64,000 nt of DNA from Candidatus Poribacteria bacterium (GTDB lineage: Bacteria; Poribacteria; WGA-4E; PCPOR2b): contig OZ244042.1 in assembly GCA_965215015.1 (NCBI GenBank), positions 1,792,001-1,856,000 of the forward strand, in the 5' to 3' direction. Both the position numbers and the translations under genes were made by a program. The notes under the pieces were generated by a model. The model saw nothing but the letters and a program-made list of their open reading frames with translations, was not told where the DNA came from and did not search any database. This document shows positions 4,252 to 11,266 of the stretch, piece after piece. Each line of letters begins with the position of its first letter. Within the stretch, counting starts at the first letter, position 1.

Positions 4252-4875
4252 ATGACACAACAACGGAATCCACGAAACCCAGAAAAATGTCCCTTCTATA
4301 TTCAACCCACAGACCCCTTAAGCGCAGAGAAATCAATTGATCGATGTGTGGCGTGTGTTACTCGCGGCAACCAACAGCTTCAAAGCCTGAAAGCGGATTT
4401 GCGTCAAACGGCATACCTGACAATTCGCGAACAGACGCCGAAGTATGACCCCAACCATGAAACGGGGGCCAGTTTCAGCACATTTATCCGTTCCTGGGTG
4501 TGTGGCAAGCTCTGGAGCGAAAGAACAGAATACCTCAAGTTAATTCCGTTTCCGGTCTATGAGGGTAGGGAAGATGCTCAACCCTTTGCCAACAATCCAT
4601 TGGTTGATGGAATGGTAGCCGAAGCATGGCAATGTGAAGGCGTCGAGGACCGGGCGACCCACTGTGTTGAGGTTGAGCAATTTAAACAGCAGCTGCCCCA
4701 ATTCTTAGAACGTTTGTCCGAGCGGGAACGGTTGGTCTTGAAGTTAAAATTCTTTGAGGAAAAAAAGTCAGTTGAGATAGCTAAAGTCCTTGATGTGAGT
4801 GAGGCGCGTGTGAGCCAATTGATTAGCACTACCCTTGCTAAATTGAAAAAAACTATCAGTGCCCGGTTCTGTTGA
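4252..4875 (+). CDS. sigma-70 family RNA polymerase sigma factor (regions 2 and 4, FliA/WhiG-like)
   Basis: KYDPNHETGASFSTF (region 2) and LSERERLVLKLKF...EIAKVLDVSEARVSQL (region 4 HTH); RBS AAGGAGGA. Confidence 0.85.
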   Translation: MTQQRNPRNPEKCPFYIQPTDPLSAEKSIDRCVACVTRGNQQLQSLKADLRQTAYLTIREQTPKYDPNHETGASFSTFIRSWVCGKLWSERTEYLKLIPFPVYEGREDAQPFANNPLVDGMVAEAWQCEGVEDRATHCVEVEQFKQQLPQFLERLSERERLVLKLKFFEEKKSVEIAKVLDVSEARVSQLISTTLAKLKKTISARFC

Positions 4876-6455: not shown

Positions 6456-7991
6456 TTATTCTTCATAGCGCAGATGGACAATCTTGTTGAGGACATCAAT
6501 GTAGGCTTTCGCGCTCGCTTCAATAATGTCCGTGCTAGCACCATGCCCGATAATAACATTCCCGTTGTCCTGCACCCGGATTGTCACCTCACCGATCGCA
6601 TCCTTTCCCTCGGTAACAGACCGGATGTTGTAGTCTGCGAGCAGGAGGGGAATCTTGGCGATCCGGTCAATTGCCTTATAGGCTGCATCAACAGGACCAT
6701 CGCCAGTGGAGGCTTCCTCAATAACACCTGCTTCGGTACGGACGCCTACCGTCGTTGTTGGGGAGATTTTCGTCCCGCTGACCAGCTGAATGTACTCCAA
6801 TTGGAAGGTTTCAGGAATCGAGCGGACCTCGTCTCTCATGATGGCCTCAAGGTCGGCGTCGTGAACCTCTTTCTTCTTATCGGCGACGTTGAGGAATCGT
6901 TCATAGATTTTTTCCAGCTGTTCCTGTGTCACCTCATAACCGAGCGCATTCAGACGGTGCCTGAGGGCGTTGCGCCCGGATCGCGGACTGAGGATAATCT
7001 GACTCTCCTGCCAACCGACATCTGCCGGATCGATAATCTCGAAAGTATTTCGTTGCTTGATAACACCATCTTGATGAATGCCAGAACTGTGTGCAAAAGC
7101 ATTCTCCCCAACGATAGCTTTGTTCGGTTGAACCGATATTCCCATCGTCCGACTGACACGACGGCTAATCGGAACAATCTCTTTCGTGTTGATGTCCGTA
7201 TAGTAGTCGCTGAAATAGTCTCGACGGGTTCGGATTGCCATCACAATCTCTTCGAGCGATGTGTTACCAGCGCGTTCACCGAGCCCGTTGATGGTGCATT
7301 CGACCTGCCTTGCCCCATTTTCAATCGCTGCGAGACTGTTCGCAACAGCGAGTCCGAGGTCATTATGGCAGTGGACACTGATGATTGCTTGATCGATGTT
7401 CGGGACATTCGCTTTGATGTCCGCGATGAGTTCCCCAAATTCAGCTGGCACCGTCCAGCCTACCGTTTCGGGGATGTTCACGATCGTTGCGCCCGCCGCG
7501 ATCGTCGCCTCAACCACTTCATAAAGATAGCTTGGCTCCGTACGTCCGGCGTCCATCGGCGAAAATTCGATAACTGCGCTGGGGTGTCCGGCAGATAGCC
7601 CCTTCGCGTAGCTGACGGCGTCGAGTGCCATCTGCAGCGTCTCTTCGGGAGAGGTGCGGGTGATACGTTCTCGGTGAATGGGTGAGGTCCCGACAAACGT
7701 GTGAATACGAGGTTTTTGGGCATCTTTAATCGCTCCCCACGCCGCGGTGATATCCTTCTCGACCACGCGTGAAAGCGCGCAAATTTCTGGACCCTCAACT
7801 TCATTGGAGATGCGCGTCACTGCATCAAAGTCACCGGGTGATGAGACAGGGAACCCAGCTTCGATAATATCGACTTGCAGCTTTGCGAGGTGTTTCGCTA
7901 TTTCCAGCTTTTCCTCAAGATTCAGCGCGGCACCGGGCGTTTGCTCAGCATCCCGCAGGGTGGTATCAAAAATGTAAACTTTCTCAGACAC
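6456..7991 (-). CDS. leuA: 2-isopropylmalate synthase
   Basis: [37 protein letters not shown] and a C-terminal regulatory domain (GDGPVDA). Confidence 0.93.
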
Positions 7992-8019
7992 TGTGTGATT
8001 CTCCTTTTTAGGGGTGCGC

Positions 8020-9084
8020 CTACGCTAGGCTTTTATGTGCAGTCCTAAGTAATGAAGCCGTTGTTTCCAGATCAATGCAACTGTCGGTGACGGAAACACC
8101 GTATTCAAGCGTGGATCGATCAAACCCGGTTAAGTCAGAAGGTATTTGCTGACTTCCAGCGTTAATATTTGATTCTAGCATGATTCCTACTATCCCATCA
8201 TTTCCGTCACGAACCTGTTTTAATATTTCCTCAAAAACAGCGGCTTGTTTGCTGTAATCTTTCTCTGAATTTCCGTGACTACAATCTATCACAACATTTG
8301 GAGGCAGCTCCGCTTCCGTCAGCATCCCTTGAACATCTTGAACACTTTGTGAGTCATAATTTGTGCCCGTATTGCTCCCCCTTATTACAATATGAGTATA
8401 TGGATTACCCGTTGTTCGTACAACAGACGGAGCCCCATAGCCATCAATTCCCAGAAAAGAGTGTTCGCCGTTTGCTGATAGAATCGCGTTGATCGCAACC
8501 GAGATATCGCCCTGAGTGCTGTTTTTGAAGCCAACCGGCATCGAAAGACCCGAAGCTAGCTGTCTGTGTTGGGGCGACTCAGTCGTCCGCGCCCCAATTG
8601 CCGCCCAAGAGACCAGATCCGAATTATATTGAGGCGTGAAGGTTTCAAGATATTCAGTGGCACATGGCAGTCCGATTTCAAGACTATCCATTAATATCCG
8701 TCTTGAGATATATAAGCCATCCTTGATATCTCCTGCCCCATTTAGATGTGGGTCATAGATTAAGCCTTTCCAACCGAGACTGGTGCGGGGTTTTTCAAAA
8801 TAAGACCTGACTATAATAACTAAGCGATCTGAAACAGCATCCGAAACCTCTTTTAATCTTACCGCATAGTCATGGGCGACCTCTGCATCATGGATAGAAC
8901 AAGGGCCAACTATGACGAATTTTCGGGAATCGGTGCCATCCAAGATATTTCTGACGCTTGTTCTGCCGTATTGGACCGTCTGTGTCATCGCATCTGTTCT
9001 TGGGAGATCGATTAGCAACTGTCTTGGACTCATTAAGGTTTGATAGTCTTTGACATTTCTGTCAATCGTACCGTTGGTCTGCAT
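8020..9084 (-). CDS. aroF: 3-deoxy-7-phosphoheptulonate (DAHP) synthase, class I-alpha (AroF/G/H isozyme not resolvable)
   Basis: VGPCSIHD, YFEKPRT-x-x-GWKG, IGARTTES, PVGFKN, DCSHGNS; RBS AGGAGG upstream of ATG 9084. Confidence 0.9.
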   Translation of the reverse strand: MQTNGTIDRNVKDYQTLMSPRQLLIDLPRTDAMTQTVQYGRTSVRNILDGTDSRKFVIVGPCSIHDAEVAHDYAVRLKEVSDAVSDRLVIIVRSYFEKPRTSLGWKGLIYDPHLNGAGDIKDGLYISRRILMDSLEIGLPCATEYLETFTPQYNSDLVSWAAIGARTTESPQHRQLASGLSMPVGFKNSTQGDISVAINAILSANGEHSFLGIDGYGAPSVVRTTGNPYTHIVIRGSNTGTNYDSQSVQDVQGMLTEAELPPNVVIDCSHGNSEKDYSKQAAVFEEILKQVRDGNDGIVGIMLESNINAGSQQIPSDLTGFDRSTLEYGVSVTDSCIDLETTASLLRTAHKSLA

Positions 9085-9106
9085 TATTTTGCTGCCTCCT
9101 ATAGAC

Positions 9107-9149
9107 AAAAAAAACGCCCACCATCGAACCTGTTTTCGATGATAGGCGT
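9107..9149 (-). terminator. attenuator terminator hairpin upstream of the DAHP synthase gene
   Basis: minus strand ACGCCTATCATCGAA-aacagg-TTCGATGGTGGGCGT followed by a T-run; 15-bp stem with G:U pairs. Confidence 0.9.
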
Positions 9150-9177
9150 GAATGAAAAACTAAATGTGGGATAATCT

Positions 9178-9303
9178 CTACATCTCCGATGCGAGGTCTA
9201 CCCGCCCATCATCGCAGCACAAGTACAACAAAAAGAGATAGAGATAAAGGAAGTACAGCGTTGTTTGACGTGCGATGTGGGTATGTGGGTAGAAATTTTT
9301 CAT
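9178..9303 (-). CDS. attenuation leader peptide MKNFYPHTHIARQTTLYFLYLYLFLLYLCCDDGRVDLASEM (41 aa)
   Basis: hand-translated; RBS AGAGG; 13 consecutive Leu/Tyr/Phe codons; contains an antiterminator-complementary segment at 9203-9214. Confidence 0.85.
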   Translation of the reverse strand: MKNFYPHTHIARQTTLYFLYLYLFLLYLCCDDGRVDLASEM

Positions 9304-9393
9304 TAGCCTCTTGTGGTTCCTATGTATTCTATACCTAACCTATACGTTCATCAACTGCTAGAAATGTCTGTAAGTTTGGTGAAAAGACACTTA

Positions 9394-9423
9394 ATTTTAA
9401 CAAACCCCTTGACAAGATGTCAA
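9394..9423 (-). promoter_or_regulatory. sigma70-type promoter for leader-aroF-leuA
   Basis: minus strand TTGACA-18 nt-TAAAAT with an extended TG. Confidence 0.55.
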
Positions 9424-9434
9424 GGCAATTTTCG

Positions 9435-9463
9435 TTGACAACCCTTTTTCTGGGTGTTATAGT
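9435..9463 (+). promoter_or_regulatory. sigma70-type promoter, divergent
   Basis: TTGACA-17 nt-TATAGT with an extended TG. Confidence 0.65.
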
Positions 9464-9519
9464 TATATTTCGGAGCGTCAATAAAACAGATTTAATCGGG
9501 ATTTGAGGATTAAAGAATC

Positions 9520-9785
9520 TAGGACTTACGCCGTTGAACCCTCGAAGCCAATACCCGAAAAGGGCGCGCAATGTTCATCGTTGGTTCAAAACACCCAGAC
9601 TCTAGCGCAACGTTCCGGGCGGATTGAGCCAGGATTATTGCTCCATAGTATCTGGTATTCTCTTGCGCTCTAGTCATGGTATCCTCACCCCCCTCTGGCC
9701 CCCGCAAGCAGGGGGACAGCATAAGGAGTATGTCTACTACTGGCGACGATTTATGGTCTATCGTGATGCGGCTTGAATGGCATTA
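9520..9785. repeat. composite of dispersed repeats (AGGACTTACGC-end element; CCCCGCAAGCAGGGGG element)
   Basis: 9524-9582 matches about 48445-48500 inverted; 9676-9785 matches about 32297-32407 inverted. Confidence 0.7.
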
Positions 9786-9853
9786 CGACAAACTCAAGTG
9801 CATAACTCCTAAGAATCAAGAGAATCCGCCAATCCTGACAAAGGAGTAGTCGT

Positions 9854-11266
9854 TTGAACGCTGAAGAAAAGTGTCTATTTATTAACAGTCAGATTCCCAA
9901 AGGGGGGCTCTTCACCGGCGAAAAGAAGACCGTCCACCCCGATAGCAATGTAACGTGGCGAATCTCGCCGGAGCCATTTTGGATTCTCCAAGAACACTTA
10001 GATTGGCTTGAGGAACTGGGAACACACCTATTGCGGTTCTACAAAGCCTGTAACTTACTCTACTCGCAGAGTGTACGTGGCATTCAGCCGGATTGGGTCG
10101 CAGCGTATCTTGATCAGGGGAAGCCTGAGTCTGTGATAGAACTCGGACGGATGAATCGGTTCAAGAGCCAACTACCACAAGTTATTCGTCCCGATATCTT
10201 GCCGACTCCCGATGGTTTTATTATCACCGAATTGGATTCCGTCCCCGGCGGCATGGGATTTACCGGCAGCCTAGCGACACAATATGCCAAATTGGACTAC
10301 GACATCATTGGCGGTAGCAATGGGATGCAGCTCGCTTTTGCGGAGATGGTCAGGTCGCTAGCGAAGGTTGAACACCCAACGTTGGCAATTGTCGTCTCCG
10401 ATGAATCCGCGGATTATTGGGACGAAATGAAGTGGTTAGAATCAGCACTGCGAGGGGTAGGCTTGGCTGCCCACACCATCAAACCCCGCGACGTGATTTT
10501 TACAGAAAATGCGCTATTCCTTGAATTAGATGAAGGAAAAATCCAAATTGATGTCCTCTACCGCTTCTTTGAACTGTTTGATTTGAAAAACATTCCCAAA
10601 GCAGAGTTGATGCTCTATGGTGCCAAAAGGCGAACGGTGGTCATGACCCCGCCCCCGAAGACATACCTTGAGGAAAAGTTGCTGTTTGCCCTGTTTCATC
10701 ACCCATCCCTCCAACCTTTCTGGCAAAGAGAACTTGGGAAGAAAACCTACCAGTTCCTACCGAACATTCTCCCACAGACATGGCTGCTCGATCCGCGTGA
10801 GCTACCACCACACGCTGTCATTCCGGCACTTGAGATGGATGGACTGCCTGTCACAAACTGGAAACAAATCATTCCTGTCTCGCAACGGCAGCGTGAACTT
10901 GTCCTCAAGCCATCGGGGTTCTCCGAATTGGCATGGGGAAGTCGTGGCGTTGCAATCGGACATGACCTTCCCACCGAAGATTGGGAACACGCAGTGGAAA
11001 ACGCATTGACCCGTTTTCATCAGACACCCTATGTCCTACAAAAATTCCACAGAGCGGAACGCCTCACTATGACTTATTACGACTTTGAGCAGGGGGCAGT
11101 TCAAAGAATGCCGGGGCGAGCGATGATTCGTCCGTATTACTTCGCAATGGGTGACAAGGTGCGCCTCGCTGGGATTCAAGCGACCATCTGCCCCGAAGAC
11201 AAAAAAATCTTGCATGGGATGGTTGATTCGATTATTGTGCCGTGTGCGGTTAAAACGGATATATAG
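9854..11266 (+). CDS. circularly permuted ATP-grasp / glutathionylspermidine-synthase-like protein
   Basis: IRPDI, TELDSVPGG, EEK, VLKPSG...WGSRGV and YVLQKF match CP-ATP-grasp motifs. Confidence 0.6.
   Translation: MNAEEKCLFINSQIPKGGLFTGEKKTVHPDSNVTWRISPEPFWILQEHLDWLEELGTHLLRFYKACNLLYSQSVRGIQPDWVAAYLDQGKPESVIELGRMNRFKSQLPQVIRPDILPTPDGFIITELDSVPGGMGFTGSLATQYAKLDYDIIGGSNGMQLAFAEMVRSLAKVEHPTLAIVVSDESADYWDEMKWLESALRGVGLAAHTIKPRDVIFTENALFLELDEGKIQIDVLYRFFELFDLKNIPKAELMLYGAKRRTVVMTPPPKTYLEEKLLFALFHHPSLQPFWQRELGKKTYQFLPNILPQTWLLDPRELPPHAVIPALEMDGLPVTNWKQIIPVSQRQRELVLKPSGFSELAWGSRGVAIGHDLPTEDWEHAVENALTRFHQTPYVLQKFHRAERLTMTYYDFEQGAVQRMPGRAMIRPYYFAMGDKVRLAGIQATICPEDKKILHGMVDSIIVPCAVKTDI

Follow-up and report, generated by a model that had tools for sequence, protein, structure and literature searches.

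In classical leader-peptide attenuators the control codons lie in region 1 of the leader RNA and the stop codon before or in region 2, and multivalent leaders such as those of ilvGMEDA and thr read several amino acids with one leader. The Leu/phe leader motif of Lactococcus lactis, held in Rfam, is a single RNA motif with either Leu or Phe codon runs. Closest to the case considered here is the aroR leader peptide of Corynebacterium glutamicum, which carries Phe-Tyr-Phe ahead of the 3-deoxy-D-arabino-heptulosonate 7-phosphate (DAHP) synthase gene aroF and which appears beside trpL, pheL and pheM of Escherichia coli in the excerpted text of PMC11802643. For aminoacyl-tRNA synthetases, classical attenuators have been predicted before leuS and trpS in Streptomyces (excerpts of PMC1262725), while His leader peptides precede hisS paralogues with similar 5' untranslated regions in bacilli (excerpts of PMC2965389) and are predicted in some Firmicutes (excerpts of PMC9413887). 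Here we describe a leader in a window of 64,000 nucleotides (positions 1,792,001 to 1,856,000 of contig OZ244042.1, assembly GCA_965215015.1) from the genome of a Candidatus Poribacteria bacterium, an uncultured sponge-associated organism. The leader stands ahead of genes for an aroFGH-type DAHP synthase and for LeuA and is, as we cautiously judge from its sequence, a probable ribosome-mediated transcription attenuator of aroFGH-leuA that senses Tyr/Phe together with Leu. The locus has a translatable open reading frame (ORF), a codon run matched to the pathways, an intrinsic terminator and an antiterminator that excludes it. These elements, the conservation of the ORF, the three pairings, the identities of the genes and a family of related leaders with matching codons were all computed. 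Most likely, the Poribacterium would in this way switch on the enzymes at the head of its aromatic and leucine pathways in response to a shortage of these amino acids.

The elements of the leader and the two genes behind it are as follows, in coordinates of the window; region 1 and the small hairpin are taken from minimum free energy (MFE) folds and region 4 from a terminator scan.

9178..9303, minus strand: leader ORF of 41 codons plus TAG, ATG at 9303, translation MKNFYPHTHIARQTTLYFLYLYLFLLYLCCDDGRVDLASEM
9220..9258, minus strand: control codons 16-28, LYFLYLYLFLLYL, an unbroken run of 7 Leu, 4 Tyr and 2 Phe
9307..9312, minus strand: Shine-Dalgarno (SD)-like AAGAGG, 3 nt 5' of the leader ATG
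9259..9290, minus strand: region 1, 5' arm of the predicted anti-antiterminator hairpin, leader codons 5-15, core CCCACATCGCAC at 9281-9270
9200..9230, minus strand: region 2, 3' arm of hairpin 1:2, with the core CGATGATGGGCG (9214-9203) as 5' strand of the antiterminator
9176..9195, minus strand: small predicted hairpin with the leader stop codon in its 3' arm
9135..9149, minus strand: region 3, terminator 5' arm (ACGCCTATCATCGAA), pairing with region 2 or region 4
9107..9128, minus strand: region 4, terminator 3' arm (9128-9114) and T-run (9114-9107)
8020..9084, minus strand: aroFGH-type (class I-alpha) DAHP synthase gene (TIGR00034, 430 bits against a cut-off of 173)
6456..7991, minus strand: leuA, 2-isopropylmalate synthase (NF002086, 759 bits against 532), 28 nt after the aro gene

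A preliminary description of this DNA, made from the letters alone, had proposed most of these parts, and at the level of sequence they are borne out. The 41-codon minus-strand ORF at 9303-9178 is present and translates as proposed, and its uninterrupted Leu/Tyr/Phe run at codons 16-28 holds the residues counted above. The proposed 15-bp hairpin with a T-run at 9149-9107 is recovered by the terminator scan as a stem of 15 pairs (9149-9114), 7 of them G-C, that closes a 6-nt loop and leads into the T-run to 9107. Complementarity of 9214-9203 to the terminator 5' arm, with one G:U, is returned by the repeat finder as a 12-nt inverted repeat of 9214-9203 and 9148-9137, 92% complementary with the single G:U scored as a mismatch. 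The run itself is longer than chance would give. A six-frame translation of the whole 5.94-Mb genome holds 29 runs of at least 8 residues made only of Leu, Tyr and Phe, and the 13-residue run of the leader is the longest of them. The runner-up (11 residues, at 407916 on the plus strand) was considered as a second aromatic leader and rejected, as it lies out of frame within a long membrane-protein ORF.

The MFE fold of 9330-9090 (-69.8 kcal/mol, z = -3.4) consists of a long hairpin, the stop-codon hairpin and the terminator. In the long hairpin, codons 5-15 form the 5' arm, codons 16-24 lie in a 28-nt apical loop (9258-9231) and the 3' arm contains CGAUGAUGGGCG; the first nine control codons (9258-9232) are inside the loop and the last four or five in the 3' arm. 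This placement of the Leu/Tyr/Phe codons in the loop of a long hairpin adjoining the terminator was counted in favour of an attenuator. Hairpin 1:2 (9290-9195) has an estimated energy of about -24.3 kcal/mol, duplex 2:3 of about -19.6 and the terminator of about -23.6, and in the folding model the leader segments form the classical set of pairings 1:2, 2:3 and 3:4. In the stop-codon hairpin, the orthologues L005 and L006 have GCGTC/GACGT where the window has GCATC/GATGT.

On this model the leader RNA would choose between hairpin 1:2 with terminator 3:4 and the antiterminator 2:3. If the leader were left untranslated, or were translated without delay to its stop codon (9180-9178, 33 nt before region 3), regions 1 and 2 would pair, terminator 3:4 would form and transcription would end at the T-run (9114-9107). 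Scarcity of charged tRNA-Tyr, tRNA-Phe and probably tRNA-Leu would instead stall a ribosome at codons 16 to about 26, where it would sit in the loop and separate regions 1 and 2 while the core of region 2 stays free; if the footprint extends about 12 nt beyond the codon in the A site, this core (from 9214) would remain able to pair. Region 2 would then pair with nascent region 3, the terminator would not form, and DAHP synthase and LeuA would be transcribed. Three steps of this scheme are inferred: that the ribosome stalls, that it sterically prevents 1:2 and that each of the amino acids evokes a response.

The translated nature of the leader is supported by its conservation. A DNA search covering the window's own genome and 40 relatives gave a match in 30 of the 41 genomes, including 18 of the 19 other genomes of the genus. 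The preliminary description had pointed to Leu/Tyr/Phe-rich upstream ORFs in related genomes as a check on the attenuator, and these exist: the ORF is kept in frame in 21/21 related leaders (lengths of 90-153 nt, every length difference a multiple of 3) and the run is conserved, the best 13-residue window being 13/13 Leu, Tyr or Phe in 13 leaders and 9/13 at the lowest. The conserved block of the 21 aligned leaders starts at the start codon, and the sequence 5' of it varies. The start is ATG in 19 of them, GTG in one and shifted two codons upstream in one, where the original position reads ACG and a new ATG opens the same frame. In L012, one of the 17 same-genus leaders, a different sequence 5' of the leader goes with a shifted start. 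Third codon positions account for 7 of the 11 variable columns within the run (17 same-genus leaders), and no third-position bias is seen in codons 1-15 or 29-41, where variable columns at positions 1, 2 and 3 number 6, 10 and 10 and 4, 5 and 5, respectively. Outside the run, the amino-acid sequence of the peptide is not conserved. Distant leaders have very different nucleotides and still read as Tyr/Phe/Leu-rich in the same frame, for example RSFYAWALYAFLLYLR, VYLYSFVLFTFLLYLR and LYFYTLGLFMRLLYLH. All this agrees with a leader that is translated and whose only relevant feature would be the identity of the codons in the run.

The pairings were evaluated in an alignment of 36 DAHP synthase leaders (A1). 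Terminator 3:4 is paired in 97.2% of the cells, with 2 compensatory pairs and 0/500 shuffles as high, and antiterminator 2:3 in 96.5%, with 1 compensatory pair and 1-2/500 shuffles as high; controls with a slid partner were paired in 24-64% (terminator) and 31-58% (antiterminator). When every leader was folded singly up to region 3, region 2 was predicted to pair with a segment lying over 20 nt to its 5' side in 70 of the 84 distinct leaders; after shuffling of the upstream part this was so in 323 of 840. The covarying stems in relatives that the preliminary description had named as a check are found in part: the pairings are conserved, and covariation is thin.

Strong support for a role of the ribosome comes from paralogous leaders. 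A second site in the window's genome shares regions 2, 3 and 4 with the leader, its ORF ends ...IGIISIIIIIPSCDGGLMQTT and an isoleucyl-tRNA synthetase gene follows; this Ile-rich leader (..IGIISIIIIIPSCDGG..) lies outside the window, at G000:C1:3255203-3255406 on the plus strand, before a 1119-aa isoleucyl-tRNA synthetase. A 25-nt stretch, TCAACCCCTATATCAATATG.., occurs twice 5' of it. In the window's family, a pattern for the cassette of shared regions matches 28/29 genomes with 1-4 copies per matching genome, and the reversed control pattern 0/29. Run over one genome per species (185,579 species), the pattern matched 89 stretches. Titles obtained for 80 of the 89 name Candidatus Poribacteria in 74 cases, an 'uncultured bacterium' metagenome-assembled genome in 4 (3 of these 4 are contigs of one genome from the window's own family), Vibrio in 1 and Jiella in 1. 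The Vibrio and Jiella matches have no region 2 and no leader. On these sequence matches the family appears almost entirely confined to Candidatus Poribacteria. A covariance model (R1), built from an alignment of 40 diverse members (A2), matched 127 of 151 sampled genomes of the phylum, with 0/5 in one family.

Across this family the codon run follows the gene. The 94 cassette copies were sorted by downstream gene, of which 75 were counted and 19 excluded (no gene in reach or ORF filter unmet). Residues were counted over the 16 codons 5' of region 2, using distinct windows of this length only:

leuS leaders, 17 distinct windows: Leu 36%
ileS leaders, 10 distinct windows: Ile 36%
tyrS leaders, 8 distinct windows: Tyr 17%, Leu 14%
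DAHP synthase leaders, 26 distinct windows: Leu 33%, Tyr 20%, Phe 13%

A Thr-rich leader (TTSITTTIST) stands on the cassette before thrS. The identities of leuS, tyrS, ileS, thrS and class I-beta DAHP synthase genes were confirmed by NCBIfam. Eight of the 19 excluded copies are ileS cassettes of another family; in the four of these that were read, the ORF stops immediately 5' of region 2, and three of the four end in an Ile run (...LIIIIP*). This variant, with its stop abutting region 2, would fit the classical form, in which a terminating ribosome covers region 2. In the window's genome, a search with the pattern and with R1 found only the DAHP synthase and ileS leaders, and no such leader was found upstream of its own leuS, tyrS or class I-beta DAHP synthase genes. 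The paralogous leaders encode quite different peptides on a shared RNA cassette, and the family amounts to a natural swap experiment with one cassette and five codon runs, each fitting its own gene. Five gene-matched codon runs on one cassette are therefore strong comparative evidence for ribosome-mediated attenuation. Together with the conserved frame and the pairings held in 36 leaders, they uphold the attenuator architecture claimed in the preliminary description.

The same near-invariance of the cassette could be read differently. GCCCATCATCG...CGATGGTGGGC is almost invariant over the phylum and its paralogues, beyond the needs of pairing, and the SD is weak in many relatives, as might be expected if an RNA-binding protein, an uncharged tRNA or a metabolite read the cassette and the ORF were incidental. 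Such a switch is nevertheless very unlikely. In five operon classes the codon run suits the gene behind it, the frame is kept with a third-position bias in the run and a lost start codon compensated, and no Rfam model matches at the locus at E up to 10, though the T-box model works in the same genome. In addition, invariance can follow from region 3 pairing with both 2 and 4 and region 2 with 1, a triple constraint that would explain the invariance of the cassette only partly.

A broader possibility, which we put forward tentatively, is that Poribacteria carry a portable attenuator module that has spread to at least five operon classes, and that the copy at DAHP synthase-leuA genuinely senses both pathways. 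A near-invariant cassette would then have had a new codon run written in front of it for each gene, doing a job that is done elsewhere by T-boxes. Aromatic or leucine starvation would each open the same terminator and would thereby control the first committed enzymes of two unrelated pathways together; the invariance of the cassette may reflect a trans-acting partner.

Some members of the family stand in unusual surroundings. L154 (G007:C1:6117800-6120700) holds a diverged 3' half of a DAHP synthase leader, with no amino-acid run, before ureidoglycolate-lyase-like and oxidoreductase-like genes; similar places exist in G009, G010 and G011, 5-6 kb 5' of DAHP synthase leaders. L154 may be a decayed or re-used cassette. 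Two identical DAHP synthase leaders (L043, L044) occur in G022:C1, the second before a truncated aro gene without leuA. In a neighbouring family (L061, L105, L111, L126, L136, L150), tyrS with a Tyr leader stands directly 5' of the DAHP synthase leader, DAHP synthase and leuA, with the tyrS and DAHP synthase cassettes about 1.6 kb apart on the same strand.

Several observations weigh against the attenuator of Tyr/Phe and Leu as set out above. The first concern the switch itself. The preliminary description had suggested folding the leader with and without a ribosome footprint, and this did not reproduce the switch: with a 30-nt footprint masked at codons 16, 18, 20, 22, 24, 26 and 28, folding kept the terminator in 7/7 positions and never gave the antiterminator, and the outer 1:2 helix persisted at most of them. 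The terminator is kept because masking takes account neither of the ribosome's bulk nor of the sequence in which the RNA segments are made. For the switch to work, it must therefore be assumed that regions 1 and 2 are held apart by a ribosome in the loop. The 1:2 helix derived from the window is paired in only 78.2% of the A1 cells, with 6 compensatory pairs, and 11-27/500 shuffles equal it in paired share and covariation score, a weak result that is partly due to poor alignment of the leader 5' halves. Over 40 family members the 12 core terminator pairs are almost invariant with 0 compensatory changes, and the pairing is therefore supported mainly by conservation and not by covariation. Translation signals are modest: the SD is weak and only 3 nt from the ATG in the window, an AAGAGG-type SD is present in 6 of 17 same-genus leaders, and 10 of the 17 are of an AAAGAAA type without a clear SD. 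Finally, single members break the match of codons and gene, namely L162, a DAHP synthase-leuA leader with only Tyr-Phe before region 2, L160, a tyrS leader without Tyr, and L152 and L169, ileS leaders without an Ile run.

A further group of these observations concerns Leu. The run ends in FLLYL, five residues encoded by the conserved 3' arm, TTTTTGTTGTAYTTG, of a stem that must pair; tyrS leaders have 14% Leu without a leucine gene of their own; and lineages that share leuA differ in their Leu codons in the loop, which number from 1 to 4. What DAHP synthase leaders have in common throughout the phylum, by comparison, is Tyr and Phe, and some lineages add a Trp codon, as in FYAWALY. Sensing of Tyr/Phe is well supported by this comparison. 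Sensing of Leu is plausible, with Leu codons that may instead act as filler or structural codons. The two cannot be separated because almost every lineage has leuA downstream and offers no contrast (2 of 24 loci are without leuA). The joint sensing of Leu, Tyr and Phe claimed in the preliminary description accordingly is well supported for the two aromatic residues and is not shown separately for Leu.

These same facts would agree with an attenuator of identical build that responds to aromatic amino acids only (Tyr, Phe and in some lineages Trp), in which Leu codons are filler or fixed by the stem and leuA rides along. The Tyr-Phe-only leader L162 before DAHP synthase-leuA points in this direction, as does the Phe-Tyr-Phe leader aroR of C. 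glutamicum in the excerpts of PMC11802643. We regard this narrower version as somewhat unlikely. The genus has Leu at 4 of 9 loop codons, kept through synonymous change (CTG/CTA/CTT, CTT/CTC), and leuA follows DAHP synthase in 22/24 loci, even where the enzyme class has been replaced. LeuA lies downstream of DAHP synthase in 19/21 loci from three families and in 3/3 further loci from two other families. The exceptions are the truncated second copy and a locus (L045/L153) where a broken DAHP synthase gene is followed by a dehydrogenase-like gene and leuS, so that one of the two loci without leuA has another leucine gene downstream. The window's genus and some of its neighbours have a DAHP synthase of class I-alpha, other lineages one of class I-beta. 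Since linkage to leuA is seen in lineages with either class, it has survived replacement of the enzyme. The leuA of the window is moreover the genome's only isopropylmalate synthase gene (a paralogue of 27% identity is citramalate synthase), with no further RNA leader observed for it. Likewise, the window's DAHP synthase is the only class I-alpha copy of the genome, the class I-beta paralogue standing elsewhere without such a leader. If Leu sensing together with Tyr/Phe is real, it would mean multivalent attenuation across unrelated pathways. The phylum-wide linkage of the aromatic and leucine entry steps also raises a physiological question.

The operon consists of aroFGH-leuA. Behind leuA come a weak terminator-like site and a gene of convergent orientation. 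The ORF of the DAHP synthase spans 8020-9108 on the minus strand, with an AGGAGG SD at 9100-9095, and its true start is probably ATG 9084. LeuA starts at GTG 7991. The preliminary description had placed two entry-enzyme genes of the aromatic and leucine pathways 28 nt apart. This is correct for the window, where 28 nt (7992-8019) separate them, while most same-genus relatives have a SAM (S-adenosylmethionine)-methyltransferase-like gene in between, and at least one of them (L032) also a small ORF. Compared with L031-L042, this gene of about 255-276 aa has been lost in the window's genome, which is also without the small zinc-finger-like ORF found beside it in L032. Relatives in addition carry a conserved in-frame stretch of about 40 codons (MKVGLTATEEPDLRDTE.NLTSLEQRTE...) before leuA, with its own strong SD (GAAGGAGGTGATG), at the following places:

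L032:3300-3430, stretch before leuA
L047:2025-2150, stretch before leuA
L043:2215-2340, stretch before leuA
L050:3440-3565, stretch before leuA

This stretch, for which no Rfam match was found in the relatives and which the window's genome does not have, could extend LeuA at its N terminus or be an upstream element that is translated.

RNA data from relatives bear on whether the leader regulates anything. About 5-7% of the sampled words of the stretch were present in each of six metatranscriptome runs, and in four that were aligned, contigs from relatives of about 90% identity cover the leader, cross the terminator and enter the aro gene. In one run, two contigs stop at 9101, 6 nt beyond the T-run, although assembled contigs cannot show ends, strand or level. 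Nothing aligned 5' of 9323 because the relatives differ there. These contigs are given no weight for or against termination or a transcript start. Coverage of the leader by RNA-library contigs and the hydrophobic peptide would also suit the absence of any regulator, with the ORF as a gene for a small hydrophobic protein or the transcript as a short RNA with its own constitutive terminator 5' of the aro gene. This is highly improbable, as the peptide outside the run is not conserved, paralogous peptides differ on the same cassette, and RNA-library contigs of relatives bridge leader, terminator and aro gene in 3 studies (these being contigs, DNA carry-over is possible). Furthermore, a consensus scan found no separate promoter-like site between the terminator and the aro gene. 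Upstream of the leader, two candidate sites match the sigma-70 consensus:

9394..9423, minus strand: candidate promoter P1 (TTGACA, 18 nt, TAAAAT, with TG), 11/12 consensus matches
9326..9354, minus strand: weaker alternative promoter-like site P2 (TTGATG, 17 nt, TAGAAT), 9/12 consensus matches

Both are consensus matches only. P2 lies about 20 nt 5' of the leader ATG and in most relatives is not conserved in the alignment. A sigma70-like promoter ahead of the ORF had been claimed from the sequence, and the two sites agree with this, though such sites are not rare around the locus (7 found against 4.6 expected in shuffles).

The surroundings of P1 show further features. A perfect 8+8 palindrome, CCTTGACATCTTGTCAAGG (9425-9407), overlaps the -35 of P1 and adjoins a promoter-like site on the plus strand (9435-9463) of a divergent 470-aa gene, back to back with P1. 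A 47-nt block (9440-9394) recurs in relatives at 81-94% identity and in several of them lies about 550-680 nt 5' of the leader, compared with about 90 nt in the window. Perhaps this palindrome block (9394-9440) is an operator common to the divergent genes. Elsewhere in the window, the C-terminal part of an ORF at 4252-4875 on the plus strand resembles sigma-70-family factors (FliA/WhiG and extracytoplasmic function (ECF) models), scoring below full-length cut-offs except with the general sigma70-ECF superfamily model.

How far the leader resembles described systems can be judged part by part. A search with Rfam models (cmscan) over 8000-10500 on both strands, at E up to 10, gave only a chance snoRNA-like match elsewhere in that interval and none to the Leu, Trp, His, Thr or Leu/phe leader families, and seven related loci gave 0 matches at gathering scores. 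The Leu/phe leader of Lactococcus lactis resembles the poribacterial family in putting different codon runs on one RNA motif; it differs in its host phylum, and no Rfam model matched at the locus. The T-box shares with the poribacterial leader the sensing of tRNA charging for synthetase and amino-acid genes and the output through terminator and antiterminator, but differs in that a specifier codon pairs with tRNA, where here a codon run would be read by translation. Two T-boxes (RF00230) do occur elsewhere in the window's genome, before ilvBN-ilvC and pheST; as the same model does not match at the leader, a T-box was discarded as an explanation of the locus.

No sequence relationship between aroR and the poribacterial leader is expected. 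The likeness would be one of function, in that a Phe/Tyr leader peptide controls a DAHP synthase operon through ribosome stalling (excerpts of PMC11802643). In place of the triplet given in these excerpts, the Poribacteria have a run of 13 codons with 7 Leu and a leucine-pathway gene in the operon, and they belong to a different phylum. With trpL, pheL/pheA and pheM/pheST, named in the same excerpts of PMC11802643, the leader would share the four segments pairing as 1:2, 2:3 and 3:4, termination as default and read-through upon a stall. It deviates from classical leaders in that its control codons lie in the loop of 1:2 and its ORF runs through region 2, and from classical multivalent leaders in that it combines amino acids of unrelated pathways. 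Attenuators before leuS and trpS of Streptomyces and hisS of bacilli, as far as described in excerpts of PMC1262725 and PMC2965389, also consist of a short ORF rich in cognate codons and a terminator/antiterminator before a synthetase gene; unlike these, Poribacteria reuse one near-invariant cassette in at least five operon classes, one member of which is biosynthetic.

Literature searches of listings, abstracts and passages for leader peptides, attenuators, riboswitches or T-boxes of Poribacteria yielded no described attenuator of the phylum, only papers on ribosomally synthesized and post-translationally modified peptides (RiPPs) or papers that do not name Poribacteria, and those for a leader of DAHP synthase with isopropylmalate synthase, or for leader peptides of ileS, leuS or tyrS, returned nothing closer than PMC11802643, PMC1262725, PMC2965389 and PMC9413887, each in excerpt. 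The preliminary description knew of no attenuator with this combination, which holds for the added Leu codons and leuA and not for a Phe-Tyr-Phe leader before DAHP synthase, known from the excerpts of PMC11802643. Small leader ORFs are easily overlooked in Poribacteria genomes, for which the covariance model R1 is a ready annotation aid, and the family offers a testable case of RNA-level control by amino acids in a candidate phylum without a cultured member. What is new compared with the known systems is the addition of Leu codons and leuA, the architecture of the leader and its phylum-wide family, built on a textbook mechanism rather than on a categorically new one.

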